Below are positions 177-19,511 of a stretch of DNA of 30,149 nt, one piece after another. A program made the translations under genes and the position numbers. Under the pieces are notes generated by a model. It ran no database searches and was not told the DNA's origin. It saw only the letters and a program-made list of their open reading frames with translations. The stretch is from a virus (Duplodnaviria > Caudoviricetes), in IMG/VR virus record IMGVR_UViG_3300047557_004385, positions 1 to 30,149 of that record, one strand, 5' to 3'. Every line of letters starts with the position of its first letter. Positions within the stretch are counted from its first letter, which is position 1.

Positions 177-479
177 TCACCACTTTACGCGATCAGCCCA
201 ATATGCTGCAGACATTTTGCCTTTTTTAATATTTGATGCGTGGCGAGCCTTGAAGGACTCACGCCGTTTCCGATACGCCTCAGACTCCCCTTCTTTCTTG
301 GGACTACCGGAGACGCCTTGCTGCCCAAAACGGATGATCTTTTCCTGGCCGTTCTCACAGGCTTTAACAATGTGACTCTTGGTGGGGTGGCCAGGAGTTT
401 TTTGGGGCTTATTACAAGCCATCTCTGATTTTTTGTAGCGACTAGATGCTGCTGCTGCCTTGCGATGTTTTTCAGCCAT
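177..479 (-). CDS. Conserved basic phage protein (DUF6321-like)
   Basis: Motifs KIIRFGQQG, RRESFKARH and SAAYWA; TAATG coupling to the upstream gene. Confidence 0.75.
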   Translation of the reverse strand: MAEKHRKAAAASSRYKKSEMACNKPQKTPGHPTKSHIVKACENGQEKIIRFGQQGVSGSPKKEGESEAYRKRRESFKARHASNIKKGKMSAAYWADRVKW

Positions 480-3154
480 TAGAAACCTTTAAAAGCAGAC
501 GTAAATTCACCGAGAATACTTTCGGCTCTGGCCGATTTATAATCCTCATCATCTTCAAATCCTAATTTAAAGAAATCTGTATCTGAACTTGTTTTACTTG
601 TTGTACTTGTTGTGCTTTTTGGTGCCGTTCCAGAATCTTCAGAACCAAAGAAACCTTCCATTGTTCCCATGGCGGCAAATGGATCGCTAAAGTCAAAACT
701 TTGAAGTTCAAATTTGCCAGTAGTTCCGGCTTTGGTTAACGCAATTTGCTCTTCTCTATTTACGTCTGGGAAATACTTTTCGTAAAACTCATCTTCACTA
801 CCCTGGTATCCAGCTTGTTGAAAGATTTTATATAGTTCAGTTGTACCTTTTTCTTGTGTATTTTTAAAATCTTCCGGGCGTTCAATATAAGTAGAGCCAA
901 GTAATTCCTGCGTTGGCTTTTTTCTTTTTTCGTTTAAGTATTTAATATTTTCACGTATTTGACGCGCAGATCCAGTCTGCAATGTTTCCATAATTGTATC
1001 TTTTAATTCATCAATTGTTCCCTTAAAATCATCAAGTCCTGTTGCTTTTAAAACCTTATTCCACTCTTCTTTATTAGTAAAATCTACGCCCTTAAGCAAC
1101 TCATCGGCAAATTCTTTAGGTTTTAAAAACTGTCCAAAAACAGATCCCTGCTTAAGTGCTTCCTGCTCTAAGCTTGGCAATACAGTGTTGTAAATATAGT
1201 TGCTTACTTTACTTGCGTTTAATATATCTTCTGCTCCATCGTAATCAGAAAAACGACCCTTTACTTGATAGTGTAATTTTGCAAACGCATTTTTATCATT
1301 TATATCAACACCAAAGCGATAGGCTTGTTGGGCCCAGTACGGGTCACCTTGTTTTGCAGCTTCCCAGTCAGCATTAACAGTCTGTGATTGCTTTGCATAA
1401 TCCTCCTTCCTGGCATCATCACCTGTTGGATTAAAGTAAAAGGATGGATCAAAAGTTCTGTCGGATGCTTGCTTAAGTTGATCTAAAAAGTATTGGGACC
1501 TTACATTAGCTACGTTATTTAAAGCAGTAACAAGGTCTTCTGTCTGGAATGGGTTCTTTTCGCTTTGTCGAACATCAAGGTATTCGACAAATTCATCCAT
1601 AGATCTTGATTCGTCAAAACGCGGTTTTAAATATTTTTCTATGAAGTTGGTTGCGAACTCTTTTTGTATTTTAATTGTTTCTTTTGCTTCGTCTGTTGTA
1701 TAACCAAGCTCAAGGTCTTCTTGATATTTTTTAGTCAAAGTATCATCAAACCATTTCTGCCAGTTGTACGTAACATTGTTTCCAACTCCGGTAATATTTT
1801 TTAAACCTTTTTCAAGAGATTCAGAATATTTATCACCGCCAACAAAAGAAAGATAACCGCCAATGCCAGATTCGCCCAACAAAGAATCAGTAATAGTTTG
1901 ATTAACACCCATGATTTCACCAAAGGTGCCCAAATTATTTAGCATTCCCAATGTTTGCTCTTTTGCTTTTGCCTTCTTAATTTCTTCTATGGTATCTTTT
2001 AGAACACTCTGAGTTAATGCACCAAAACGTTTTACGTCTACTGTTGCTTTTTCACCGGCAGCTTTATTAATTGCATCTTCTAATTCAGTGATTCCATATC
2101 CTTGGTTTACGTTGTAATCAAAGCTTACTTGTTTATCTTCCGGCCGTTCGGATAATCGAAACAGAGCTGCAAATTCATCTTTTTTATTCAAGTCTAAATA
2201 CTTTTCTTTTGCTAATTCTTTCCAATATGTATCTCCATTTTTTGCTTTTTCCCATTCTTCTGCAATGCGTGGAATTTTTAATAAACGATCAGTTTGATTA
2301 CCTACGTCACCAACACCAAGTTGCAATGTACGGACATCTTGTAAATCTTTATCAGTAGGTTTTTTCTCCAGGTATTGATTAACAGCTTGTTTATCCTCTA
2401 CAGGATTACCACGTAAGCCAGCAGCTTTTCCTTGATTTGTGTAATGTTGTAGGTAAAAACCTTCTTCCCCATATCTTTCGGTAATATCAATATCATCTTC
2501 TGCGACTGCTTTTTTCCATGTTTCAGCAACATTTGGATTTTGCTCTTTATAAAACTTTGGATCAAACTCACCATAAGGAGGTTTTGCTCCTAGCTTTGTA
2601 TCCCAGCTCTGAAGTTTTTCAGCGCGATAAAAAGTTTTAAAGTTATCTTCTAATCCAGCAATGCCTAATTTTTTTAAACTATCACGCTGTTGAACATAGT
2701 CTCCCCCAGCGGTTGAGCCAATGACAGCTTTAACAGTTGGTAGTTTGCTGTTGTATGTGTCAACTTCGTTGTTGTATGGAATAATAACATTTTTATTTAT
2801 TGAGTCATTGTTTTGCGCTTCTTCATATTTGCTTTTAACATTTGCCGACTCTCTTATATACTTTTGCATTGCCTGGTATATATAACCATTATAATTTGCT
2901 CCTCGGAATGCAACATTTTGAACATCGCCTCCAACCCTATCCCAAAGATTCGCCTCTAAGGGTCCCGTTACAGGGCCAGATTTTGTTGCTTTTGGATCTT
3001 TTTCAGTACTTATATTTGCGCCTGTAACGACGTTTCGCGTCATATAAACATTTAAGTAATAACTTGTGCTTGGATAGTTAACCTGTTTAAGACCTTGTTT
3101 TGCTCTTTCTGTAATTGTCCATTTCTTATTGTTAGCGTCGTATGTAACTGTCAT
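479..3154 (-). CDS. Large 891-aa probable virion protein with internal repeats
   Basis: Long ORF in the late operon with repeated FDPxFY and WxxAKxGDxYW blocks. Confidence 0.8.
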   Translation of the reverse strand: MTVTYDANNKKWTITERAKQGLKQVNYPSTSYYLNVYMTRNVVTGANISTEKDPKATKSGPVTGPLEANLWDRVGGDVQNVAFRGANYNGYIYQAMQKYIRESANVKSKYEEAQNNDSINKNVIIPYNNEVDTYNSKLPTVKAVIGSTAGGDYVQQRDSLKKLGIAGLEDNFKTFYRAEKLQSWDTKLGAKPPYGEFDPKFYKEQNPNVAETWKKAVAEDDIDITERYGEEGFYLQHYTNQGKAAGLRGNPVEDKQAVNQYLEKKPTDKDLQDVRTLQLGVGDVGNQTDRLLKIPRIAEEWEKAKNGDTYWKELAKEKYLDLNKKDEFAALFRLSERPEDKQVSFDYNVNQGYGITELEDAINKAAGEKATVDVKRFGALTQSVLKDTIEEIKKAKAKEQTLGMLNNLGTFGEIMGVNQTITDSLLGESGIGGYLSFVGGDKYSESLEKGLKNITGVGNNVTYNWQKWFDDTLTKKYQEDLELGYTTDEAKETIKIQKEFATNFIEKYLKPRFDESRSMDEFVEYLDVRQSEKNPFQTEDLVTALNNVANVRSQYFLDQLKQASDRTFDPSFYFNPTGDDARKEDYAKQSQTVNADWEAAKQGDPYWAQQAYRFGVDINDKNAFAKLHYQVKGRFSDYDGAEDILNASKVSNYIYNTVLPSLEQEALKQGSVFGQFLKPKEFADELLKGVDFTNKEEWNKVLKATGLDDFKGTIDELKDTIMETLQTGSARQIRENIKYLNEKRKKPTQELLGSTYIERPEDFKNTQEKGTTELYKIFQQAGYQGSEDEFYEKYFPDVNREEQIALTKAGTTGKFELQSFDFSDPFAAMGTMEGFFGSEDSGTAPKSTTSTTSKTSSDTDFFKLGFEDDEDYKSARAESILGEFTSAFKGF

Positions 3155-3155
3155 G

Positions 3156-3518
3156 TCAACTTGCCAAGCTTAACGAATCGACTTGATAAACAAAAACATC
3201 AATAGGTTCTTGCTTTACCCAGGAGTTAATTCTATCCATCTTAGCCTGCGTAAAAAAATCTTGTTGCTCAAACCATTCTTTTACTTTATTGCTTGCTTTA
3301 GATGCATTGCATTTTCTGCATGCAGGAACAAGATTATTGCGGTTGCTAGATCCAGACCTAAATCTTGGTACCACATGGTCAAGCGATGTTGCCTCTGCTT
3401 CGCAGTAAGCGCATCTGTAATCCCAGGCTTCGTATATTGATTGTCGATAACGTTTCTTGGCAAGTTTAGGTGTTAGTTCAATTAGCAGGGCGAGGGGTTC
3501 TTGCTCGCTGTTGAACAT
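3156..3518 (-). CDS. Small zinc-binding HNH endonuclease (HK97 gp74/McrA-like)
   Basis: CAYC...SLDHVVPRFRSGSSNRNNLVPACRKCN gives CxxC, the HNH core and a second CxxC. Confidence 0.9.
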   Translation of the reverse strand: MFNSEQEPLALLIELTPKLAKKRYRQSIYEAWDYRCAYCEAEATSLDHVVPRFRSGSSNRNNLVPACRKCNASKASNKVKEWFEQQDFFTQAKMDRINSWVKQEPIDVFVYQVDSLSLAS

Positions 3519-3598
3519 ACTATTGATGCCGTTAATCTATTTTAAATTCCCCCTATTTGCACAAGAAAAAACAAAAGATTAAAACTTGTTACAAGCTT

Positions 3599-3626
3599 TT
3601 GACTGGGTCGGGTGGGTTGTTACTCT
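3599..3626 (+). promoter_or_regulatory. Sigma70-like promoter for the HTH gene
   Basis: TTGACT (3599-3604), 16-nt spacer, TACTCT preceded by TGn (extended -10), upstream of ATG 3651. Confidence 0.5.
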
Positions 3627-3650
3627 ATTTCTGTAAGCCAATTTTCTTCC

Positions 3651-3851
3651 ATGGCAGCGCAGTCTACTTGGGTGTCGGCCCAGAAACTTGAAGAGCTTCT
3701 TGGAATTGACAAGAAGACTCTCTTTAAGTATCGAGATGATGGGACCCTGAAGCTCGGTGCCCATTATGCGGCATTCCCAGAGACTCGATCAAGGGACAGC
3801 TACCGATGGAATGTTAAAGCAGTTAAGAGACAACTAGAACAAATGGTTTGA
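3651..3851 (+). CDS. Excisionase/MerR-like HTH DNA-binding protein
   Basis: WVSAQKLEELLGIDKKTLFKYRDDG..YRWN fits a winged-HTH pattern. It has its own promoter and terminator. ATG 3651 is preferred over the track start. Confidence 0.75.
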   Translation: MAAQSTWVSAQKLEELLGIDKKTLFKYRDDGTLKLGAHYAAFPETRSRDSYRWNVKAVKRQLEQMV

Positions 3852-3855
3852 TATC

Positions 3856-3879
3856 AAGGCCACGCAAGTGGCCTTTTTT
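3856..3879 (+). terminator. Intrinsic terminator between convergent genes
   Basis: AAGGCCAC-GCAA-GTGGCCTT followed by TTTT; GNRA loop. Confidence 0.85.
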
Positions 3880-5443
3880 ATGTTGAAGGTTTCTCATCAA
3901 GGCTTGGCACGTATTCATTGCCATCTTTGTCAATCATGACAAAATTTTCCATGACGACCAAATCAGATGGAATATTAAATAGCTTTTGCATCATTGGCAT
4001 CATCATTGGTGATTGACAGTTGTATGGTGGTACATCCATTTTGGCCAGTGATTTACGTGTCAGTCTGGCAGCGCGAGACTCAAGCTGATCAGATTCAGTT
4101 TCATCTACAAGTTTTTGTTCCCACTTTGCCATTGATCCAATGCCCACGGGAAAATCGGATGGCTCTGGCGGGAATGTTCCATCTTTGAATTTAAGTGCGT
4201 AGATGTGCTTGCAATATCTAAACTCATCTAGCAATGGTGTCCAGTTATCGCTAACAGATGTAATTTTTCCATTAGCTGAACTGTAATCGTCATAGCCTGG
4301 CATGCTTTCTGCCGCAGATCCAGGTAAGGATGGTTCTGCTGGTGTTGATGTTTTTCTCAGATAAATTGCACCAAAATCTCTGTAAACCCCTGGATTGTCA
4401 CGGTTGACATTCTGTCCTTCTTGGACTGATCCACCCTGTCCCAAAGACACTGAATAGCCGGATGGGGCGTATACCGTCATACGTCTATTAACTTTTGCAT
4501 TGGTCATAGCGCTGTTGTCTACCTTGCCACTCAGTGTTGTTATCTCGTTTCTTCCTGGTTTAATGTTTGCAATACTAGTGCGAGGAAAAACTTTCTTTGT
4601 TGTATCTCCACCTATCTCAGTAAATGCATAATCGCGACGCGTAAAATCTTGGCAAGAGCAACAAAAACGCGCACCAGTAATTAAAAATCTTCCTGGTGTA
4701 AAACCTACTGGAGACGGTGTTAATAGCTCTTTATCTGGTGAAACATAAACAGAACCTGCCTTGCGAAACTTTAAGATTCCCGTCGTTGAACCTGTGTTTA
4801 CAAGCACAGCCTGGACATAGCCATAACGCTTTTGTGTTGTCGGATCAATAGTATCGGCATTAATAATTGGCCCGTCTTGAGTGATAACACGATCTTCAAG
4901 AATCTCAGTTGTAATGGGAGTGATGCCAAAAGGACCGCCGCCAATCTGAACAAAGAAAGGAGGAGGAAGTCGGTTGGATGCGCTCCAGGTACCGGCAAGT
5001 TTTACATACCAATAATCTGCATCTTCCGTAACGGATTCGATAAATAATTTCTGGAGCGATACTGGGTCTGTAATTTTGTCACAGCGCAAGGAGCCTGCAT
5101 AGCGCCAGCCAGCCCAATGCATTCCAAGCTCTTTATCTTTTGTTGGAAAACCTACGAATGCGCCAGAAACTGTTGGTTGTGGATTTGCGATAGAACCTGA
5201 AGTTGTACTAGAAACAGGAATTGTGTATTTAAAAGGATAGGAAAAGTCGTTATCGTAAATATTTGCCGTAGCCAGTTCATATCCACGGCGCCAACGAGAC
5301 CAGGCTGATTCTCTGTTGGCGGTGGTAATTGAATCAGGGACACCGCCTTTAGAGAATTCAGTGCGAATCGGTGTCAGGCGAAATGGATCTTTATTTATTG
5401 CTTGGCCAAAAGATCCAAACGCGTCCCCGGTTTTGGGCTTCAT
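3878..5443 (-). CDS. 521-aa protein with a split SWIM-like zinc-finger motif
   Basis: FCCSCQDF ... YCKHIYAL. Confidence 0.75.
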   Translation of the reverse strand: MKPKTGDAFGSFGQAINKDPFRLTPIRTEFSKGGVPDSITTANRESAWSRWRRGYELATANIYDNDFSYPFKYTIPVSSTTSGSIANPQPTVSGAFVGFPTKDKELGMHWAGWRYAGSLRCDKITDPVSLQKLFIESVTEDADYWYVKLAGTWSASNRLPPPFFVQIGGGPFGITPITTEILEDRVITQDGPIINADTIDPTTQKRYGYVQAVLVNTGSTTGILKFRKAGSVYVSPDKELLTPSPVGFTPGRFLITGARFCCSCQDFTRRDYAFTEIGGDTTKKVFPRTSIANIKPGRNEITTLSGKVDNSAMTNAKVNRRMTVYAPSGYSVSLGQGGSVQEGQNVNRDNPGVYRDFGAIYLRKTSTPAEPSLPGSAAESMPGYDDYSSANGKITSVSDNWTPLLDEFRYCKHIYALKFKDGTFPPEPSDFPVGIGSMAKWEQKLVDETESDQLESRAARLTRKSLAKMDVPPYNCQSPMMMPMMQKLFNIPSDLVVMENFVMIDKDGNEYVPSLDEKPST

Positions 5444-5445
5444 CT

Positions 5446-6231
5446 TTAGAAGAAACCACCCTGTGCATAAACGTGAGCACCTGGGGTGTAACCAGAAATG
5501 TTAGGGCCGTCAGGGAAGACCCCAACGTAAATACGATCGCCTCGCTCCAGGTAGATGCCCTTGTTCCGCAGGGGAGCTGTTGTTCCTAATCCAGTGGTAT
5601 TCCCTGCCTGTGGCATCGGATAAGCAAGCTGAGGCATTGCGTCTGCACAATCTACCTGGCCGCTGTTGGCAGGGACGGTCTTGGAAAAAAGGATTCGATA
5701 GTCACCACTACCAGGGATAGGAGTGGTGGTGCCACGGGTGTGGTAGAAAACAAAGGTTACAGCAGGTTGCGTACCGTAGTTAGAACCGTTGTAGGTAAAG
5801 CCACTTGCGCCGGAGAACACAAGGCTTGTGTTAACACCTGTCAGTGTTGTGGCACCCGTGTACGTGTAATAACCGTAGCCGCTCATTGGAGCGGTACCAA
5901 GAACACCAGTGTTTTGAATAAAAACAATCTGGCCACTGTTCAGGGAAATTACGGTGCCAGAAGTACCAGAGCTAATGGTGTAATCAGGATCACGATATTT
6001 ATCGTTTCGGACAATTGTGATGGAGTCAACTACACCACCGTTGTTGGTGTCATCGCTCAGTTCAGCGTCCATATCAACGAGAATGGACGGGGCCTGACCA
6101 CCCTGCACAAACAATGTATTGCTGGATGCACTGCCAACAGTTTGCGTTGTTACCCGAACGGAATCAAATAACGGACGATCCGAAAATACGGGCTGCTTGT
6201 TCGTACTAGTACTGGCCGTTTGACTAAACAC
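5446..6231 (-). CDS. Probable virion structural protein, beta-rich (start uncertain)
   Basis: T/G/S/V-rich 261-aa ORF in the morphogenesis operon with a GTG start. Confidence 0.7.
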   Translation of the reverse strand: MFSQTASTSTNKQPVFSDRPLFDSVRVTTQTVGSASSNTLFVQGGQAPSILVDMDAELSDDTNNGGVVDSITIVRNDKYRDPDYTISSGTSGTVISLNSGQIVFIQNTGVLGTAPMSGYGYYTYTGATTLTGVNTSLVFSGASGFTYNGSNYGTQPAVTFVFYHTRGTTTPIPGSGDYRILFSKTVPANSGQVDCADAMPQLAYPMPQAGNTTGLGTTAPLRNKGIYLERGDRIYVGVFPDGPNISGYTPGAHVYAQGGFF

Positions 6232-6280: not shown

Positions 6281-6832
6281 ATGGCACAAACAACTTTTCA
6301 ATGCGCTCAATGCGGGAAAACCTATACAAGAGAAGGCAATACTGCAGCCTGGCACAGAAAAAGATTGAAAGAAAAGGGTTACACTTTTTGCTCTAAAGAA
6401 TGTGGCTCTTTTAAGCATGGCGGGCATAAAAATAAAACACCTGAATATGGCTCATGGTGTGCAATGAAAAATCGTTGTAACAATAAAAAACATCCGTCTT
6501 ATGAGCGATACGGTGGCCGAGGCATCACCTACGATCCCCCATGGCAAAAATTTGAAAACTTCTTCGCTGACATGGGAGAAAAACCGGATCCCAAGATGGA
6601 ACTTGAAAGAATTGATAACAATAAAAATTATTGTAAAGACAATTGCAGGTGGGCGACGCACAAAGAGCAAACAAGAAATCGTGGCGGCAAACGCGCAACA
6701 CGACTTTATACGTTCAACGGAGAAACTTTATGTATTGCCGATTGGGCTAAAAAAATTGGAATATCTCCTCAATCAATGCAAAAAAGATTAAATAAAGGGT
6801 GGCCGCTTGAAAAAGCTTTTGCACCAAAATAA
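6281..6832 (+). CDS. Free-standing HNH-family homing endonuclease, antisense to the operon
   Basis: N-terminal CxxC...FCSxxC finger; YGGRGI..W..FENFFADMG..LERIDNNKNYCKDNCRWAT..EQ.RN core; C-terminal HTH (WAKKIGIS...RLNKGW). Confidence 0.85.
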   Translation: MAQTTFQCAQCGKTYTREGNTAAWHRKRLKEKGYTFCSKECGSFKHGGHKNKTPEYGSWCAMKNRCNNKKHPSYERYGGRGITYDPPWQKFENFFADMGEKPDPKMELERIDNNKNYCKDNCRWATHKEQTRNRGGKRATRLYTFNGETLCIADWAKKIGISPQSMQKRLNKGWPLEKAFAPK

Positions 6833-6835
6833 TTA

Positions 6836-7090
6836 TTACTGAGCCATTTGAGCAAATGCCACAAAGTCACCTGGCAGCCTCATGTCTCTTTCCGCAAGTG
6901 CATTTGGATTTTGATACAGCCGCATAAATTCTTCTAGATATTTACCAGCGATATCAGACTTTGGTTTAAATTTAATTCTTTTACTTAATTCATATTCCAA
7001 TGCGGAGAAAGGAGAGGCGTCTCCGTAGGCGCCCCTCCGTACTTCTCCCGGAAGGTAATCGGAATCCAGATAGTCAGCAAAATTTGCCAT
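6836..7090 (-). CDS. Hypothetical protein
   Basis: 84-aa ORF coupled by TAATG to the upstream gene. Confidence 0.7.
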   Translation of the reverse strand: MANFADYLDSDYLPGEVRRGAYGDASPFSALEYELSKRIKFKPKSDIAGKYLEEFMRLYQNPNALAERDMRLPGDFVAFAQMAQ

Positions 7091-7761
7091 TATCGTACGG
7101 TTCCAAATAGAGAAGGAATAATTCCAACACCTGGAAGAAGGCTTTGGATGGCGTTTTGAACAAACATCTGAGAAAGAGATTTTTTCTCTTCTGATCTGTT
7201 CAGATCAACGCCAAGTATTCCAGACAGAACCGAAGAAACAGGCGGCGCTGGTTGCTGTGGTGGAGCAGGCGGTCTGGCAGCTTGCATGGGTTCGGTCATG
7301 CCTCCGTCCTGTGGAATATCGCCTAACACTCGTCGTGCATTGGCATACAGATCACCACCCTTCCGAAAACGAGAAAGTGCACCAGAAACGGATGTTCCAA
7401 ATGAATCTTTAGCATTTAAAGAAACATTTGGATTTCCGCCTAACACAGTGGCATATGCACGAGCAATACCCATCCCTGGCTTAAAGCCACGATCCGAAAA
7501 GTACTGCAGAACTTTTGGCATTTGACCAGCGCGTGTCTGTGGTCCTTCAATTCCATAAAGGCGTTGTTCGTTTTGACCGAACTGAATCAAACCCCTATGG
7601 CGACCACCGGCACCTCCCACAATATTCGGGTCCATATTTGGCCCTGATTCCAGGGATAAAAATGCACCAAATTCGTAGGGATCCAGGCCCAGTTTCCTGG
7701 CACCTTGGATAATTGCCATGCGTTCTTCGTGAGGAAGAATACCAACGCGTGGTTTACTCAC
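7090..7761 (-). CDS. Lysozyme-like/lytic transglycosylase-like virion protein
   Basis: FLSLESG...NIVGG...GLIQFG resembles the SLT catalytic Glu-Ser and GLxQ motifs, followed by a Pro-rich linker. GTG 7761 follows the upstream stop; the track start at 7827 overlaps the upstream gene. Confidence 0.7.
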   Translation of the reverse strand: MSKPRVGILPHEERMAIIQGARKLGLDPYEFGAFLSLESGPNMDPNIVGGAGGRHRGLIQFGQNEQRLYGIEGPQTRAGQMPKVLQYFSDRGFKPGMGIARAYATVLGGNPNVSLNAKDSFGTSVSGALSRFRKGGDLYANARRVLGDIPQDGGMTEPMQAARPPAPPQQPAPPVSSVLSGILGVDLNRSEEKKSLSQMFVQNAIQSLLPGVGIIPSLFGTVR

Positions 7762-7763
7762 TG

Positions 7764-9083
7764 TTACTGCCTCCCCTTTAATCGCAACATCTCCCGGTAA
7801 GCAAGCTCCGGATTGGCCTGAGCCCACTTCTGAAGATTCTCCGGAGTCATTCCAGCTGCACCACCCAGTGCTTGGAGTTCGCTCACCAGGTTTCCTTTCT
7901 GCATCATGCTCCTACCCAATTGCTGCTGGCTCTCATAGAAGGAAGAAAGAGGGACATTTGTAGGAGCAGCGTACTGCTGAGCAGCGTTAAGTACTTCCTG
8001 AGACAGTGAGCGGTTAAGAACATTTTGACGTTGTGCGGGAACACCGGCCCCGTTGGACATCGCTGCTGCCCCTGGTGGAGGGGGTGCAGCAGGAGGTGTC
8101 GCTTGTCCGGCTTGCTGCCCGCTGAATGAGCTACCAGGAGAACCTGAAAACCCTGGGGCAGGAGGTGGAACTGCTCCCGGAAGAACAGAGCCACTTCTAT
8201 CCATTAAACCAGTAGGAATCCCAGGGCCAAACTGTTCAGTGCCAATTGCTTTACCTGCATTCTCAATTTGAGCTTGGCGACTGACGCGTTGCATCATGTC
8301 TTGCTTAGAGCTATAACCAAGCTGTTGCCACCGATCAAAAGGATCACTGGATTGCGGGCTAGAACCTTCTAAACCAGCAAGGCTTAAAAGACTACCACCT
8401 ACAGATCCACCGGCGCCAACTAAACCGAGACCAACTGTCTTTGCCCAAGTTGGACCAGGGATTGCATTAAAAACAGAGGATACAGTTCCCAAGTTGCGCA
8501 TCAAACCGCCAACGGCTGAAGGGTTAACTGCACTGCGTGAAAGTGCGTCAGCAGCCCTTTGACTAGTGCCACCAAATTGCTTAAGAAATTCACGGCGTAA
8601 ACCAGGATCCCGAGCAAATGGACCACCAAATCCTGTGGGGCTTACTAAGCCACCCGTCAAACCTGTTGCAATATTTCGACCAGCTTGTACTGCATCACCA
8701 ATGACAGGAGCACGGAGAGCACCAGAGGCAGCTTGTTGAATAGCTGCTGGAACGCGAGGAATGTCACCAGCCATCTCACGGATGGCACGCGATGCCATTC
8801 CAGATTGCACAGCACGCTGAACCCCTTGGGGCATATCAGCAACTTGGTTGATTAAACCAATGGCTTGTGTTGGTATGCGACCAAAATTTGCACCAGAGAA
8901 TTGTGATGGTAAACCACGGCGCAATGCATTTTCAGCCCTGGCGGCAAGCCCCTGATAGGTTGCAGGGCTTGTCATATCCCTAGCTACTGGTGCAATACGC
9001 TTTACCGCTTGGTTAAAACCAACAGGAACGTTACGTGAAGCTTGCTGTAAAAGTTGTTGGAATAACTTGTTCATTAGCGACAA
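7764..9083 (-). CDS. A/G/Q-rich probable internal virion protein
   Basis: 439-aa low-complexity ORF in the structural operon. Confidence 0.65.
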   Translation of the reverse strand: MSLMNKLFQQLLQQASRNVPVGFNQAVKRIAPVARDMTSPATYQGLAARAENALRRGLPSQFSGANFGRIPTQAIGLINQVADMPQGVQRAVQSGMASRAIREMAGDIPRVPAAIQQAASGALRAPVIGDAVQAGRNIATGLTGGLVSPTGFGGPFARDPGLRREFLKQFGGTSQRAADALSRSAVNPSAVGGLMRNLGTVSSVFNAIPGPTWAKTVGLGLVGAGGSVGGSLLSLAGLEGSSPQSSDPFDRWQQLGYSSKQDMMQRVSRQAQIENAGKAIGTEQFGPGIPTGLMDRSGSVLPGAVPPPAPGFSGSPGSSFSGQQAGQATPPAAPPPPGAAAMSNGAGVPAQRQNVLNRSLSQEVLNAAQQYAAPTNVPLSSFYESQQQLGRSMMQKGNLVSELQALGGAAGMTPENLQKWAQANPELAYREMLRLKGRQ

Positions 9084-11662: not shown

Positions 11663-13653
11663 TCAGACGGTACCGTCATCAGACACGTAGCTGAAAGCGG
11701 TGGTCACGAAGTCCTTGTTCAGGATTTCGAAACCAGCGTACAGCTGCCAAATCAGAATGATGAAGCGGCTGAAGTCGTCGTTGTTGTTGATGAGCACCTG
11801 GGCGTTCGGACCACCGATGCCCACGCCAATGGCCTGAGGACCAAAGAAGAAGCCCTGGGCAACTTCCTGAGCAGCATAGGTACCGCCGGTACCAGCAAAG
11901 GAAGTGGTGATGGACTTGGTGGGGAAGTTGGTCGATTCGAAGAACTTCACACCTTCGAACTGAACACCAGTCGGCATGACAGGCTCACCAGCCAGGAAGT
12001 AACCCTGACCAGCCTGGGGACCCATGTAGAAGCTGGCGTTGTTAGGCATCATGGGGTTGCCCATGTACATGCCTTGACCAGGATTGCCGCTGTAACGAGC
12101 AATCTCACGGAAGTCAGGATCACGACGCAGGTGCATCATGAAGGTAGGATCGCAAATGCAGCGATACAGACCATCGGAGAAGGTCGGCACGTTGCGCTTA
12201 CGCAGATCCTTCACCACGGTCAGCAGGTCGGTACGAACCGAGAATTGCTGCAGATCAGCGGTGTATTCGGTCGAAGTGTAGGTGATACGACCGGTAGAAT
12301 CTTTAGCCTTAGCACCAGGGAAGTAGTAACCACCCTGAGTAGAGGAGGCTTGACCGTTGGCTTCGGCTTTGGCGAGTTCATCAATGAACACGCGGTCACG
12401 CCAACGGCGGTAGTCGTCAAGCAGCGTCAGGCTACCGATCGACTGGTGGAACATGTTCAGGTTACCGGTGTCCAGCAGAAGACGCTGGGCGGTAATCAGA
12501 GTTTCACGAGCAATCTTGAAGGTGCTCGGTTGAGTCGGATCACCCGGGTCGGCAGGACCGGTGTACTCCTTCAGCACAACAAGCACCTTCTCTTTGGTGA
12601 TGTTGCGGCTGTTGGCAGTACCGATCGTCTGGTCAGCCACACGCTCGCGGCTGTCCTTCGTGCCGGGGGTACCCCAGAACTTGTAGCGATCTAACTGAAC
12701 AGTTTGACCGGGTTGACGAGTAAAGTCGTGGACGACCACAGGCTCTACCGCCATTTCTGCAATGTAAGCAGGGTGGGGGCGGTAAAGCTCCGCACCCAAA
12801 ATCTTTGGAAAGTCGTTCTCCTGGTCTCCAGTTTCTTGGAGGGGTGGACTATCTCTTCATCCCTGTGGGATGCCGGACGCTGAATCTGGTATTACGTAAC
12901 AAGATCGTGTTACACCCAGTAGTCTCTGCACCTTCCAATCACGCTTGATTGGCTTGGCTCAGGATTACCCTCGACTATACGTTAGGGCTTCCCTGAATTC
13001 ATCCGGTTTGCACTCATCGATTGCTCGGTGAGGTGACAACGTTGAGCGTTCAGCTGAGGCATGCTATCTTTTGGAAAGCTGTTTATAAACAACATGGACC
13101 CAAAATTAGTTCCAGGATTTGGTAATCTTTACTTAACGGAAGAAGGTAAAGCTTTTGAAAAACAACTTGATCCCGATAATCAAGAATATTTTCAAGAGAT
13201 TCCCATTCGTTCAACCAGTGTTTATGACCGTATTTCAGTTCTTGTTAACGGAAAGAGAAAGCGTTTTCATCTTCACGTCTTGATGGCAGTTGCATTTTTG
13301 GGTTTAGATCTGCGTTCACATGGAACACATAACTTTTCCCTGCAAGTAGATCACAAAGATAACAACAAGAGAAATAATCAAGTTGATAATCTTGAAATCG
13401 TTACCAAACAAGAAAATTTAACAAGGGCCTGGAAAACGGGTTGTTACAAGAACAATGGTTTTGCCAGCAAAGGGAAACCGAAAAAAACTTTAAGAAAATT
13501 TTCTTCGGATGACGTGGCTCAAATCAAAGCTTTAAAAGAGGCAGGTCTGTCGTATAGAAAGATCGCCGAAAAGTTTAACTGTAACCACGGAGCTATTTAC
13601 CAAATCTTGAAGGGCAATACCTACCAGGATCTGAACTAGCTATCAATGAACAC
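11663..13653 (-). CDS. Major capsid protein, intron-split: join(13653..13642, 12817..11663), 388 aa
   Basis: SD GGAGG at 13668-13664, then GTG TTC ATT GAT | AAC GAC TTT CCA AAG ATT TTG GGT, giving MFIDNDFPKILGAELYRPHP. Position after portal and scaffold, size and codon bias all fit an MCP. Confidence 0.88.
13042..13070 (+). promoter_or_regulatory. Promoter for the intron-encoded HNH
   Basis: TTGAGC, 17-nt spacer, TATCTT with extended TGn, upstream of ATG 13094. Confidence 0.5.
13094..13639 (+). CDS. Intron-encoded HNH homing endonuclease (antisense)
   Basis: NUMOD4-like start (KLVPGFGNLYLTEEG); LHVLMAVAFL...VDHKDNNKRNNQVDNLEIVTKQEN core; C-terminal HTH. Alternative start at 13061. Confidence 0.9.
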   Translation: MDPKLVPGFGNLYLTEEGKAFEKQLDPDNQEYFQEIPIRSTSVYDRISVLVNGKRKRFHLHVLMAVAFLGLDLRSHGTHNFSLQVDHKDNNKRNNQVDNLEIVTKQENLTRAWKTGCYKNNGFASKGKPKKTLRKFSSDDVAQIKALKEAGLSYRKIAEKFNCNHGAIYQILKGNTYQDLN

Positions 13654-13751
13654 TTTGGTTTATCCTCCAGTGTCAGTGTTTTTATCGGGTGAAAGATAAA
13701 GACACGTGTGTCTTATCTAACACAAATTTTAGCAGTTAATAACCTTTTTAG

Positions 13752-14312: not shown

Positions 14313-15280
14313 TCCATCACGAAGAGTTTGTTAGCAACAACTTGAGGTTGGGCCTGGTTCAGAACGCGCCATGCATTCTGGGGATCACGAGCCATTTGCT
14401 CTTGGAAGCTGCCCCAGAAATTCTCGGGGGCTTGAGGAGCGGCAGCAGCAGGGGGAGCCGGGAACTCACCGTAACCAGGGCTAATCGAACCAGTGGGATA
14501 ACCACGGGTTTCCAGTTGGCCTTCGTTTTCGTACACAGGGTACGGACCTTCAGGACCAAAGAACTTCAGGGTGTAATCACTGAGAACATCAGGGTTGGTG
14601 AGGATCTCGTTATACGCAAGATTCTCTTGATGCTCGTTAACAGCAAAGTTAGCGTAACCGCGAATTACATCAGCGGCGAGGCTTCCCCAGCCGACGGCGC
14701 TGTCCAGGAGTCCCTCCAGATTCAGGGCGTACTGGTTCAGAATTGCCGGAGCTTCCATCCCGAACGCGTCCAGGACCTGACGGGTTTCGCCGCTCAGACC
14801 GTAATAATCCGCGATCGCTTCGTTCACCTCTTGATGCGCTTGCACCGCCGAGGAGCCCGTCAAGTAAGTTTGGGAAGAGCTGAGCGAGTAATCCTGGCTG
14901 GGCGACCAAGTCGGCTGAGCCGATGGTTGCATAACTGGGCTGCTGGGCAGTCCGTAATTGGCCGGGGTAAATTGAGTCGCTGGAAGCGAGGGTTGACCCT
15001 GGAACGGGGATTGGACTGGTGCGCTCAGCAGGTTCACCACCTTGTTGAACGCCGATTCCCATGGATTCCCCGCCGGTTGGGATTGGGGGGCGTACTGAAT
15101 AGGGTTGGATTGGTAACTGGGGCTCGCCTGAGGTACCGCTTGGGGGTAGCTGGTACCCACTTGATACGCCACCGGCGCCGGGGAGGCTGCCTGTGGAGTT
15201 GTTACCACGTAACTGCTGGGAGCCACCGCCACTGGTGCTGGGCTCGTCTGTGGGATCGATTGGACGGTAGCGTCCTGCAT
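14309..15280 (-). CDS. Putative capsid scaffolding protein
   Basis: SD AAGGAG; P/Q/S/A-rich N-terminal half and helical C-terminal half; lies between portal and MCP. Confidence 0.65.
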   Translation of the reverse strand: MQDATVQSIPQTSPAPVAVAPSSYVVTTPQAASPAPVAYQVGTSYPQAVPQASPSYQSNPIQYAPQSQPAGNPWESAFNKVVNLLSAPVQSPFQGQPSLPATQFTPANYGLPSSPVMQPSAQPTWSPSQDYSLSSSQTYLTGSSAVQAHQEVNEAIADYYGLSGETRQVLDAFGMEAPAILNQYALNLEGLLDSAVGWGSLAADVIRGYANFAVNEHQENLAYNEILTNPDVLSDYTLKFFGPEGPYPVYENEGQLETRGYPTGSISPGYGEFPAPPAAAAPQAPENFWGSFQEQMARDPQNAWRVLNQAQPQVVANKLFVME

Positions 15281-17027
15281 AACTCATCTCCTTTTGTAAT
15301 GCTTCAAGAGTTCGATACAGATATGGAGTTAAATCCAACCTGGGATCCGCAGCCATCGGTAAATCCGGTGATTGCGGGTGAGGAGTCTGCATCATCCCCC
15401 CCACTAAGCGAGCAAATTGAGAATAAGCATTCTGCAATTCACCCACCATCCTGAACGGGAACCCAGATAACATCTCGGCCCGTTCCTCATCCGTCTTAGA
15501 CGGGAAGAGGTATTTCAGTGCTTCAATGCTATCAACACCTAATTCTTGCAAGTTTCTTACAACAATTGAGTTGTTGAGAATATCTTGGGTTGAATCCTCA
15601 TAGACAGGACCTAACCAACGCCAAAGCATGGTTACATCACCATCCGGAATTAAGCCTAAAACACCGGGCGGAATTTGTTGTGTTTTCAAGCAAGCCATCA
15701 TTAATTGCTTGACTTGATTATCAAATTGCGCCATGGCCTCTTCATATGCCATAACATCTTCATCTGATGCATCCTCTGGTAGTTCCAGGGGTTTTTCTAG
15801 ACCTGTTGCAGCAGCAAGCGTTTCACGGAACAAACGCTCTTCTTGATAAATAATTAATTCAAGACAGCGGCAAATTCCATATGTATAAATGGCATTTGCT
15901 TTCTTTTTAGAGGTTGCAGACACACGGCCAAACAACGATTTGTATTCAGTTGCGGTTACGCCTGCAGAAATAGAAAGCTCATCTACACCACCAAGGGCAG
16001 TCCGTATTTCTTCTCGATATTGACGAGCAAACGAATTCTGGTCACCGGTAATAGCATCTGGAACAATATAACCAACACGGTCGTTTGGCTCCAGGTTTGC
16101 AATTACGCGTGGAACTCGAATCTGTCCATCAACTCCACGGCTAATTGGATCAGCTTTAAAACGAGATTGGCTCAAAGTACTTAGACCTGTAAAGCCGGAG
16201 TTTGCCGCAATTGATGGACGCTGAACCACGGCCTCTCCACCAGCCTCCATTAGGTCGGTCTTGGGACGAGAAGAAAGCAGAGTTGGGTTACCGAAAAACT
16301 GTACGTTCTTACGCATGGTGCGAACCATCTCATCATGCGTACAAATATGATTAGCTAAAGCGTCAAATTCACCAACACCTTCTGTGGCAAAACCCTTGGG
16401 ATTATTAAAAATTTCAACACAAGGAATAAAACCAAGTGTGTTGCGAAACACTTTTGTTTTACCTTGTACGGAATATTGAGGCTGCTCAAAAGAAATCTCA
16501 CCTTCCGAATGAGTTTCTTCGATCTGTTTTCGCTTGATTGAAAGACGAATATATCTCTTTGCACCTTGGCCCATGGTGGCAGGACCAGTTAAATTCCCAG
16601 CTTGAATTTCTTGTTCAAAACCAAATCCACGGCGCACCTTATAGCTGTAGATGATCACCACCTCATCCAGCTCACCGTCTAGGTTGTAGTACGTCCGGTA
16701 CTCATGACGCCGGAAATAATACATTCGGTAGTTATTTTTGGTAGGGCGAATGTAAAAAAGACCCTGGCCATCACACAAAAAATAATCCCAGATGGAATCC
16801 AGGCGCGTATCAATTTGATTGTATTTAATTACACGATCAATAAAGTCCTTGCGTTGATTGCCAAAATTATCTTGTGCAGGAAAAAATTCAACTCCTTGAC
16901 GTATGCCAAAGAGTTTCATCTGAGCAAGATGAGAGGCTACGACGCCAGTGTCAATCAGAGTACCCCCATCCTTCTCTAGATAGGAATCAATGATTTCTTT
17001 TAAGCGGGCCTTTGCGTCGACAGCCAT
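14670..17027 (-). CDS. Portal protein with a long C-terminal overlap into the scaffold gene
   Basis: Lies between terminase and scaffold/MCP; LGFIPCVEIFNNP, GVGEF and SAGVTATEYK have portal-like character. Confidence 0.75.
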   Translation of the reverse strand: MAVDAKARLKEIIDSYLEKDGGTLIDTGVVASHLAQMKLFGIRQGVEFFPAQDNFGNQRKDFIDRVIKYNQIDTRLDSIWDYFLCDGQGLFYIRPTKNNYRMYYFRRHEYRTYYNLDGELDEVVIIYSYKVRRGFGFEQEIQAGNLTGPATMGQGAKRYIRLSIKRKQIEETHSEGEISFEQPQYSVQGKTKVFRNTLGFIPCVEIFNNPKGFATEGVGEFDALANHICTHDEMVRTMRKNVQFFGNPTLLSSRPKTDLMEAGGEAVVQRPSIAANSGFTGLSTLSQSRFKADPISRGVDGQIRVPRVIANLEPNDRVGYIVPDAITGDQNSFARQYREEIRTALGGVDELSISAGVTATEYKSLFGRVSATSKKKANAIYTYGICRCLELIIYQEERLFRETLAAATGLEKPLELPEDASDEDVMAYEEAMAQFDNQVKQLMMACLKTQQIPPGVLGLIPDGDVTMLWRWLGPVYEDSTQDILNNSIVVRNLQELGVDSIEALKYLFPSKTDEERAEMLSGFPFRMVGELQNAYSQFARLVGGMMQTPHPQSPDLPMAADPRLDLTPYLYRTLEALQKEMSYAGRYRPIDPTDEPSTSGGGSQQLRGNNSTGSLPGAGGVSSGYQLPPSGTSGEPQLPIQPYSVRPPIPTGGESMGIGVQQGGEPAERTSPIPVPGSTLASSDSIYPGQLRTAQQPSYATIGSADLVAQPGLLAQLFPNLLDGLLGGASASRGERSDRGLLRSERRNPSGPGRVRDGSSGNSEPVRPESGGTPGQRRRLGKPRR

Positions 17028-17984: not shown

Positions 17985-19511
17985 CTAGTAATCAATGTGT
18001 AACTGGCCTTTTTTAGCGAGGCCCGTGACCAACCATACTAACGCGTCAACCGTGTCATCGTGGCTACTAACGCCGAAATTGGTTAGCTCTTCAAACATTG
18101 CAGTGAAATTACGAAAACGATTAAAGATAATTTTGCGATCTTCAAACATGCCCATGATGCCACGAAAACGGGCAAGTTTATCTGCACGGAATCCTTTAAC
18201 TGGATGCCAGATTAAGTTGTAAAGACCCTCGTTATTAAGACAGACCCGTTTGAAGTCAGCTTCCAGTGATGCCTGGTACTGTACGGCCTCCGACCAAATA
18301 TCACACGTAGAATACGTCGGAAAATAATTTCCGTTCTCATCTTTGCCAAGAATTGACCAATCATTAAGAAGCTCTTTTAGGGCATCTAGTTTTTCCAGAT
18401 TTCCCATAACGCGAATTCGACGGTAATCAATAATGTGAATACGGTCTTCAATGCGACCGCCAAGAATCATAACGGTATAGTCATTCTTTTCTTTTGTTCC
18501 AGCGGAAAGGTCAACCCCAATTCCAAGTGTGTCAAATTCTGTCGAAATTTCTGCCTTAACAATTAACTCAGGTGCCAAAGACAATTCGTTTTGTCTGACA
18601 ATTTGATTCATGTACTGGAAAGAAAAAGCGATAGGCGCTTGCCTTTTCTTTTCACGCAAGTAATCCAATGACCACATATCGGGCCAATAAGATTCCTCTT
18701 CGCCTGTTTGAGGATTAGATTGAATTGCAGAAAGGACAATCTGAGTCCAATTATTCTGTTCGTTAAATGTTGTAGCGTGAATATCATCATGTCGAAAACG
18801 AGTACCAAGGCAAATAGCCCGGGCACCTTCAAACATGGTGGGAGCGATCACCGCATTCCAGTTATCCTGCATTGTTTTACGAATGTCAGGATTAGAAATA
18901 TCAGCAGCAGACTTAATAGCGTCATCGATCATTACAAGATGTGAACGTTTAGATGTCACCGAACCTTTGAGGCCAGCAGCGCAAAGCGTAAATTGTTCAT
19001 CGCCTGTTACATCAATGCCAGCAAACCTGTGATCAATTGACCAGTATTCATTACTGGTTACATTCTTCATCAAACGAACCGTAGGAAAAACTTCTTGGTA
19101 TCGTTTACTTTCAATGATACGTTTAATGGTTGCTGATTTAGATCGAGCAATATCAACCGTGTAAGAAAGATAAAGAATCTGAAGAGGCAGTTTAGCTTGC
19201 GTGTGAATGCCAATAGCCCAGGCAGTTAATAAACCAAGGACAGTACTTTTTGCTGAACCCCGTGGAGCAAGAAGATCAATGTTGGGACCAGCGATCTTGA
19301 TTAAACAAGAACTATCTTCGTTGGTAACAAAGTGTCGATGCCAATCTCGATGGTGTTGTGCAGGAGGTTTATCGGCAACGTACTCACAAAAAAACGCAAA
19401 ATCTTCTCTGGCTTTTGCCAGAGCTTCTGCGTTACGTGGTACTTTAATTTGTTGATTACGTGCAACAGCTTTTGCGTTTCTGCGATGCGCTAGATGTACG
19501 TAAGAGGGCAC
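17985..19511 (-). CDS. terL: Terminase large subunit
   Basis: Walker A APRGSAKST, Walker B VMIDD, coupling motif GTR, nuclease motifs GVDLS and HDDTVDA. Confidence 0.95.
   Translation of the reverse strand: MPSYVHLAHRRNAKAVARNQQIKVPRNAEALAKAREDFAFFCEYVADKPPAQHHRDWHRHFVTNEDSSCLIKIAGPNIDLLAPRGSAKSTVLGLLTAWAIGIHTQAKLPLQILYLSYTVDIARSKSATIKRIIESKRYQEVFPTVRLMKNVTSNEYWSIDHRFAGIDVTGDEQFTLCAAGLKGSVTSKRSHLVMIDDAIKSAADISNPDIRKTMQDNWNAVIAPTMFEGARAICLGTRFRHDDIHATTFNEQNNWTQIVLSAIQSNPQTGEEESYWPDMWSLDYLREKKRQAPIAFSFQYMNQIVRQNELSLAPELIVKAEISTEFDTLGIGVDLSAGTKEKNDYTVMILGGRIEDRIHIIDYRRIRVMGNLEKLDALKELLNDWSILGKDENGNYFPTYSTCDIWSEAVQYQASLEADFKRVCLNNEGLYNLIWHPVKGFRADKLARFRGIMGMFEDRKIIFNRFRNFTAMFEELTNFGVSSHDDTVDALVWLVTGLAKKGQLHIDY

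Follow-up and report, generated by a model that had tools for sequence, protein, structure and literature searches.

Locus organization and intron boundaries

The sequence analyzed here, hereafter the window, is a metagenome-derived virus record from IMG/VR (IMGVR_UViG_3300047557_004385; 30,149 bases; CheckV completeness, 38%) in which nearly all open reading frames (ORFs) of at least 100 amino acids (aa) lie on the minus strand. It belongs to an uncultured freshwater cyanophage that is S-EIV1-like. On its minus strand lies a major capsid protein gene that is split after the fourth codon by an 824-nucleotide (nt) group I intron, most of which is occupied by an HNH endonuclease gene running in the opposite direction. 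An initial annotation, made from the letters of the DNA, had proposed the intron and a 12-nt coding exon behind a GGAGG motif, joined in frame to the remainder of the gene across 824 nt. That arrangement is present in the sequence. The annotation described the locus correctly and left its strand (minus) unnamed, and its account of the intron did not include the antisense HNH gene. The main features are as follows (coordinates are those of the window).

13664..13668, minus strand: Shine-Dalgarno motif GGAGG, 10 nt upstream of the GTG start codon; the same motif precedes the start codon of the intron-less gene in phage S-EIV1
13642..13653, minus strand: exon 1, GTG TTC ATT GAT (M F I D), GTGTTCATTGAT, read from the sequence; it abuts a homologue of exon 2 in 68 of 80 loci and in S-EIV1
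12818..13641, minus strand: group I intron, 824 nt, identified by Rfam family RF00028, with boundaries from intron-less homologues; 5' splice site after U13642, omega-G at 12818
11663..12817, minus strand: exon 2, 384 codons plus stop, an open frame from AAC GAC TTT that is in frame with exon 1
13061..13639, plus strand: HNH endonuclease gene in the P1 loop, 192 aa from ATG 13061, stop codon TAG at 13637..13639

The boundaries of the insert were set by comparison with DNA that lacks it. Synechococcus phage S-EIV1 (KJ410740), the nearest cultured relative, matched both flanks at ~80% identity and left the 824 bases between them unmatched. Its DNA is unbroken at the site, reading GGAGGATAAACACAA GTG TTC ATT GAT ACC GAC TTT CCT AAG, with GTGTTCATTGAT running straight into ACCGACTTT, which starts ACCGAC. 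DNA comparison alone leaves a one-base ambiguity (with a slash for the boundary, GAT/A...GAG/A or GATA/...GAGA/); we chose the first option because only this one fits the group I rules of a U before the 5' site and a G before the 3' site. At its 3' end, the intron then reads ...ACCAGGAG, followed by AAC GAC TTT CCA AAG of exon 2. Intron-less DNA carries the junction TTCATTGATAACGACTTT. Spliced mRNA of the window phage would carry the junction TTCATTGAT-AACGACTTT.

Joined in this way, the exons encode a protein of 388 aa that begins MFIDNDFPK, and its homologues are 387 to 389 aa long. Comparison with intron-less homologues had been set beforehand as a test of the proposed intron, and it came out in favor: the N-terminus is [MV]F[IL]D[NT]DFPK in 115 of the 120 best protein homologues (827 in all), and the S-EIV1 gene is contiguous. 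Relatives at 46 to 53% identity begin MFNETDFP, MFIDEIFP, or MTFIDNQFP. Without splicing, exon 1 continues into AGC TAG and the frame reads VFIDS and stops at codon 6, the early end that had been predicted for the unspliced mRNA. The expectation that gene callers would start this gene at TTG 12799 also held, for the ORF finder starts the capsid ORF there, and 5 of the 120 listed homologues begin with the corresponding false start, LGAELY or MGAELY.

Exon 2, by its database match and modeled fold, is an HK97-type major capsid protein. It matched phrog_1357 ("major head protein") at 3.4e-16. A Pfam scan of the capsid protein gave no match even at E ≤ 1 (the database lists PF25209 for some homologues), so the assignment rests on PHROGs and the fold. 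The AlphaFold model, built from 34 sequences, had a predicted local distance difference test (pLDDT) score of 77 and a predicted template modeling (pTM) score of 0.77. Foldseek returned 358 matches at E ≤ 0.001, the best of them phage capsid proteins: those of the cyanopodophage Pan3 (9vye_A; E = 3.9e-13) and of P-SCSP1u (8i4l_A; E = 8.1e-13), followed by Ralstonia GP4 and Sf14 (to 5e-11). The S-EIV1 record itself (locus L001, KJ410740 60767..62010) is without a proper capsid coding sequence; annotation of the region consists of a wrong-strand "hypothetical protein" (locus positions 3018..3779, minus) and a partial one (3774..4244, plus).

Ribozyme structure and covariation

Positions 13066..12825 of the minus strand matched RF00028 with 88.6 bits (E = 1.3e-21) over model positions 1 to 253, which is the whole model. 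The gathering cutoff of this family is 50 bits, and no other Rfam family matched the window at its gathering score; a match of this strength is well outside what chance would produce. The RF00028 search, which had been suggested as a check, thus bore out P3, P7, and the P/Q/R/S core elements recognized by eye. The pairings on the minus strand are as follows.

13639..13645: 5' strand of P1, exon UGAU (13645..13642) plus intron AGC (13641..13639); pairs with 13040..13034
13034..13041: internal guide GUUGUCA (13040..13034) and P10 partner CGUU (13041..13038), from the sequence and partner tallies
13631..13636: 5' strand of P1a, GUUCAG; pairs with CUGAAC (13053..13048)
13048..13053: 3' strand of P1a, CUGAAC, from covariation
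13013..13032: P2 hairpin with a GCAA (GNRA) loop; 7 of 8 pairs changed on both sides; present in the minimum-energy fold
12858..13006: catalytic core, from the Rfam alignment, covariation in 61 sequences, and a minimum-energy fold with z = -2.97
13006-13000/12879-12873: P3
12996-12991/12964-12959: P4
12987-12984/12971-12968: P5
12958-12956/12932-12930: P6
12952-12946/12941-12935: P6a
12924-12920: 5' strand of P7; 3' strand UAGUC at 12851-12847
12919-12886: P7.1 hairpin
12872-12867/12863-12858: P8
12841-12837/12830-12826: P9 hairpin; 4 of 5 pairs with double changes

Related ribozymes were collected by scanning IMG/VR for a 16-base core motif, which gave 119 loci. A window-like ribozyme was found in 96 of these, and 91 of the 96 abut a homologue of capsid exon 2. 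The ribozyme copies are 72 to 97% identical to that of the window, and exon 2 of those lineages falls to 68 to 78% identity.

The pairings that define the splice sites vary together with the exons. P1, proposed as TGAT/AGC paired with GTTGTCA, places U13642 opposite G13037, giving a U-G wobble at the 5' splice site. All 68 entries are concordant, 59 combining exon UGAU with guide GUCA and 9 combining CGAU with GUCG (a tally that includes the window itself, the duplicate locus L201, and contigs fetched twice). In other words, lineages with C at exon position -4, where the Ile codon is ATC rather than ATT, have a guide that ends in G rather than A. P10 was likewise found as proposed, CGUU pairing with AACG of the 3' exon, and variants of the pair (UGUU with AAUG or AACG; GAUU with AAUG) keep 3 to 4 of the 4 pairs. 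The omega-G, G12818, is invariant in the 61-sequence alignment. P1a occurs as GUUCAG/CUGAAC, ACUCAG/CUGAGU, GCUCGC/GCGAGC, and GCUCAG/CUGAGC, with all six pairs at a fixed register in 38 of 43 distinct copies; in the other 5, a complementary stretch could be picked out by eye 1 to 2 nt off register (a 5-mer in one).

Covariation in the body of the ribozyme was scored in 61 distinct sequences, namely, the window and 60 IMG/VR copies from the 119 loci, aligned with MAFFT on a structure drawn from the Rfam alignment and the window sequence. Standard pairs filled 98.8% of 3,111 cells, and changes on both sides were present in 22 of 51 pairs (P2, 7/8; P3, 3/7; P6, 1/3; P6a, 4/7; P7, 1/5; P8, 2/6; P9, 4/5). 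The double change in P7 is U-A to C-G and occurs in 6 sequences. When columns were shuffled, none of 500 replicates reached any of the five measures, and when partners were slid by 1 to 3 columns, 24 to 42% of cells were paired and 1 to 6 pairs showed such changes. P7.1, which MAFFT places one column off between lineages, was for that reason kept outside this count.

Folding of 13045..12818 gave a concordant picture. The minimum-energy structure recovered P2 through P6a, P7.1 (a hairpin between P7 and P3'), P8, and P9, with a z score of -2.97 and none of 200 shuffles as good. The extra hairpin between P7 and P3' suggests intron subgroup IA. The ribozyme is a structurally intact and evolutionarily maintained group I ribozyme.

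An antisense HNH endonuclease gene in the P1 loop

The endonuclease ORF, antisense to both the intron and the capsid gene, fills nearly all of the loop that P1a closes. The start codon conserved among relatives is ATG 13094, which gives a protein of 181 aa. Pfam HNH_3 matched residues 88 to 119 with 34.6 bits (cutoff, 24.8), and the protein matched phrog_59 ("HNH endonuclease") at 2e-27. The homing endonuclease I-HmuI has its gene on the sense strand of an intron within the gene for the DNA polymerase of Bacillus phage SPO1 and nicks one strand. Residues 54 to 185 aligned with the I-HmuI structure 1U3E, a stretch that spans the HNH core (VDHKDNNKRNN) and the putative C-terminal DNA-binding part. 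The two enzymes share their location in phage group I introns, and the match is a distant one only (E = 6.1e-6).

The antisense placement is a constant of this intron family. All 72 loci with similarity to the endonuclease gene carry it inside the intron and antisense. Long introns (806 to 827 nt) have an intact antisense ORF of 179 to 205 aa in 37 of 37 distinct cases, and none of 45 distinct introns has a sense ORF longer than 70 aa. The endonuclease gene is under purifying selection, with a median ratio of nonsynonymous to synonymous substitution rates (dN/dS) of 0.12 (range, 0 to 0.26; 534 pairs with dS > 0.05). Its identity is 65 to 67% where that of the ribozyme is 77 to 81%.

Endonuclease gene and ribozyme overlap at the 5' end of the intron. 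The gene ends ...CTG AAC TAG, the complement of P1a and P1, so that the 5' strand of P1a encodes the last two codons (Leu, Asn). The palindrome CTAG at 13636..13639 supplies both the stop of the endonuclease (TAG 13637..13639, plus strand) and the stop of the unspliced capsid frame (TAG 13638..13636, minus strand). Introns that lack the ORF have CCAG/CTGG in place of CTAG.

The lone sigma-70 match from a promoter scan lies inside the endonuclease gene (13350..13378), and the number of matches was the same as in shuffled sequence. By eye, TTGAGC-N17-TATCTT (13041..13069, plus strand) could be picked out as a weak candidate promoter, no more than a guess: with 8 of 12 matches it falls below the scan threshold, and since its -35 element complements the guide region, its conservation carries no weight as evidence.

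Distribution of the intron among related phages

Three states of the site were present among the 80 best capsid loci in IMG/VR. Sixty-eight loci were intron-less, 8 had a full intron with the endonuclease gene (824 to 826 nt; 84 to 91% identical), and 1 (L047:1346-1621) had a 276-nt intron without the endonuclease gene; in the remaining 3, the contig ended inside the intron. Over both IMG/VR scans, ORF-less introns made up 8 of 45 distinct complete introns and were 268 to 325 nt long. A lineage of slightly shorter full introns (806 to 810 nt) was represented by L082, L085, L098, L115, L118, and L139.

An ORF-less intron retains the complement of the last six codons of the endonuclease gene, TAC CAG GAC CTG AAC, with CAG for the stop. 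Since the short introns keep this remnant in the shared P1 stem, they are probably deletion derivatives that lost the endonuclease gene, rather than ancestors that had yet to acquire it.

Intron presence was mapped on a tree that FastTree built from 900 nt of exon 2 in 111 distinct rows, of which 49 were intron bearing, 61 were intron-less, and 1 was unlabeled. Presence and absence required at least 21 changes on this tree, compared with 36.1 ± 2.8 (minimum, 28) for shuffled labels. Presence and absence of the endonuclease gene required at least 5 changes among 44 rows. This scattered yet nonrandom distribution fits what homing, loss, and recombination would be expected to give.

Three loci (L095, L141, and L188) from a divergent capsid lineage have an intron with a P1 loop of ~10 nt and no endonuclease gene. 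Their ribozyme is only 72% identical to that of the window, their 3' exon starts AATGAC or AACGAC, and what lies just upstream of exon 1 resembles another ORF in antisense. In another locus (L099), capsid exon 2 extends for only 44 codons (…QPGQTVQLDR) before a second insert, which has a sense-strand ORF (…FWMDDGN…) that is LAGLIDADG-like by eye; possibly, this capsid gene harbors a second intron.

Proposed splicing and homing, and alternative explanations

We consider it highly probable (roughly 90%) that the 824-nt group I intron splits the capsid gene between codons 4 and 5 and is able, as predicted, to excise itself from the late pre-mRNA, enabling synthesis of the full-length capsid protein. 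Late transcription of the minus strand would produce a pre-mRNA that holds the intron, and two guanosine-initiated transesterifications, at U13642 and G12818, would remove it. Only then could translation continue beyond codon 4. Production of the endonuclease would draw on a plus-strand transcript, and in a mixed infection the enzyme would nick or cut intron-less capsid alleles, repair of which could copy the intron in (homing).

Several observations weigh against this reading or do nothing to advance it. P4 and P5 showed no variation in the 61 sequences and are uninformative either way, and in P2 one pair (13028/17) is mismatched (C-A) in the window and unpaired in 31 of the 61. For the endonuclease, the helix-turn-helix match HTH_38 reached 24.4 bits, below its Pfam cutoff of 27, with HTH_23 and HTH_7 also under theirs, and upstream of the gene the sigma-70 scan turned up nothing promoter-like. 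The counts of changes on the tree are rough, given a quick FastTree analysis, recombining phage DNA, and sampling enriched for intron carriers. RNA libraries add a last point of this kind. Sequencing runs that match the window contain little of it (at most 0.12 of sampled words), and contigs of four such runs (X1, X7, X13, and X23) were compared at 85% likeness. In contigs of two RNA libraries, X13 at a depth of 187.5 and X23 at 3.4, the 824 nt are missing and 12816/7 is linked to 13641/2. Some intron sequence was present in all four runs; these depths are unfit for ranking exon against intron. In X7 there is an ORF-less form lacking 13057..13622, with 16 other letters at that place. Nothing about splicing follows from the joined form: it would look the same in transcripts or DNA of phages without the intron, which are common, DNA may be present in the libraries, and the upstream spacer of the X13 contig is unlike that of the window.

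A first alternative accepts splicing and denies homing. The backward HNH protein might have ceased to be, or might never have been, the homing enzyme of this intron; it would be an enzyme of the free-standing type whose gene came to rest in the P1 loop and which is active at other targets (competing phages are one example), the intron being its safe harbor. Lying on the other strand, the gene is not expressible from the capsid transcript; two further HNH genes of the window lie outside introns (3156..3518, minus strand; 6281..6832, plus strand), and ORF-less introns persist in the population. However, the gene travels strictly with the intron (inside and antisense in 72 of 72 loci), diverges in step with the ribozyme and exon lineages, and is under purifying selection, and the scattered presence and absence of the intron at one precise site fits homing. 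We regard this explanation as very unlikely.

A second alternative is that the intron is a dead relic that no longer splices, leaving a capsid protein that is 10 residues shorter and starts at TTG 12799. The ORF finder and some database gene calls do start at this TTG (LGAELY). Yet all core helices are intact in the window, and compensatory changes have maintained the ribozyme across lineages with no more than 75 to 78% identity in exon 2, while exon 1, the Shine-Dalgarno motif, and the P1 partner have been retained and covary. Of the 120 listed homologues, 115 conserve the ten N-terminal residues that such a protein would lack, and these remain recognizable at 46 to 53% identity. Moreover, the nearest GGAG is 18 nt upstream of TTG 12799, which is too far for a Shine-Dalgarno motif. 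A nonsplicing relic is accordingly hard to credit.

That the insert is a chimera or other assembly artifact, as might be feared of a contig from a metagenome-derived record that is 38% complete, has a negligible probability and is refuted by its recurrence in many assemblies: 91 of 119 loci, assembled independently, have it at this very codon, as do 12 of 80 capsid loci, its copies are 72 to 97% identical to the window with compensatory changes, and contigs of four sequencing runs cover parts of it.

Within the preferred reading, that of a splicing and homing intron, a more tentative extension can be sketched, which we hold to be doubtful. With only four codons in exon 1, capsid synthesis might be gated by splicing. 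Because the start codon is 12 nt from the 5' splice site, a ribosome that initiates on unspliced RNA would occupy the exon strand of P1 and then meet the TAG, six bases into the intron. Loading of ribosomes would compete with formation of P1, and the two might exclude each other. The last codons of the endonuclease double as the P1a stem, and intron, capsid gene, and endonuclease could be co-adapted in an overlapping segment of 30 nt. The endonuclease might be made only when late transcription of the capsid strand is off.

Comparison with known systems

The closest published parallel is the actinobacterial siphovirus LittleE. As described by Pope et al. (2013, PLoS One, PMC3706429), its major capsid gene contains an 819-bp group I-type intron with an endonuclease ORF (gp14) on the bottom strand; the intron splices efficiently, as judged by reverse transcription-PCR (RT-PCR) and N-terminal sequencing, and only some members of the cluster carry it. 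On that description, LittleE and the window share a group I-type intron of ~820 bp in the capsid gene, an antisense endonuclease, patchy presence, a U at the end of exon 1, and a G at the end of the intron. They differ in enzyme, LAGLIDADG/I-CreI-like with an HNH-like tail in LittleE and an I-HmuI-like HNH protein with a putative helix-turn-helix here; in site, well inside the gene and just past the delta-domain cleavage point in LittleE and after codon 4 here; and in host lineage, an actinobacterial siphovirus as against an S-EIV1-like cyanophage. The layout has thus already been published in kind, with another enzyme family, site, and host lineage, and the present case is no new class of system.

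Capsid genes had been left out of the list of known phage intron hosts in the initial annotation, which needs correction on this point. Besides LittleE, PMC3706429 cites lactococcal phage Tuc2009, which resembles the window in having a group I intron within a capsid subunit gene. Cyanophage group I introns in psbA of S-PM2, S-CBWM1, and S-SRM01 are mentioned in PMC3706429 and PMC8557907. Like the present intron, these lie in protein-coding genes of cyanophages, some with an endonuclease ORF, and they differ in that the host gene encodes the photosystem protein D1, not a virion protein. Introns in other genes are described in the literature for Jug phages, Lactobacillus plantarum phages, Citrobacter phages, OM43 phages, PA-SR01, and S-SRM01. 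A literature search on capsid introns, opposite-strand endonucleases, and S-EIV1, with most subscription journals and the S-EIV1 paper itself outside its range, found LittleE and no capsid intron in the S-EIV1 lineage. The words "antisense," "opposite," "orientation," and "phage" are absent from the group I intron database paper PMC11835236.

These cyanophages with an HNH enzyme are a second well-supported lineage for the backward-endonuclease layout first seen in LittleE, which suggests that the layout recurs in capsid genes. For annotation, the consequence is that automated gene calls cut short the capsid gene of these abundant freshwater cyanophages or give it a wrong start. If splicing takes place as predicted, the late gene that the phage expresses most highly would hinge on a ribozyme. 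The site also offers a natural, population-wide snapshot of the homing cycle (empty, with endonuclease, and with endonuclease lost) with dozens of variants to compare; this intron family, widespread among related phages, is useful both for annotation and for study of that cycle.

Neighboring genes and other core-motif loci

The capsid gene follows a 785-aa gene (14670..17027) whose match is phrog_20475, a family with no annotation beyond "virion structural protein"; further upstream is the large terminase gene (17985..19511). The plus-strand HNH gene at 6281..6832 matched phrog_3377 at 3.3e-48. It is the only other sizeable plus-strand ORF within the minus-strand gene array, between minus-strand ORFs 5446..6231 and 7090..7827. 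The Rfam scan of the window showed no intron around it, so this gene looks free-standing and is likewise backward. The minus-strand HNH gene at 3156..3518 encodes 120 aa, matched phrog_2214 at 1.3e-26, and lies directly upstream, in the direction of transcription, of an 891-aa ORF (479..3154).

The core motif also reaches beyond capsid genes. Twenty-three of the 119 motif loci (e.g., L083, L092, L105, L130, L150, and L156) have neither a window-like ribozyme nor an adjoining capsid exon and are presumably other group I introns in other phage genes. In addition, ~165 to 180 nt of the ribozyme core matched published phages at 70 to 78% identity in places where no feature is annotated. These were Klebsiella phages Muenster, KP13-7, RCIP0023, and phiKp_21; Vibrio phages R16F and VnaP; Escherichia virus TH47; and Escherichia phage Turkey5. 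On the strength of this similarity, the matched segments are likely unannotated group I introns.

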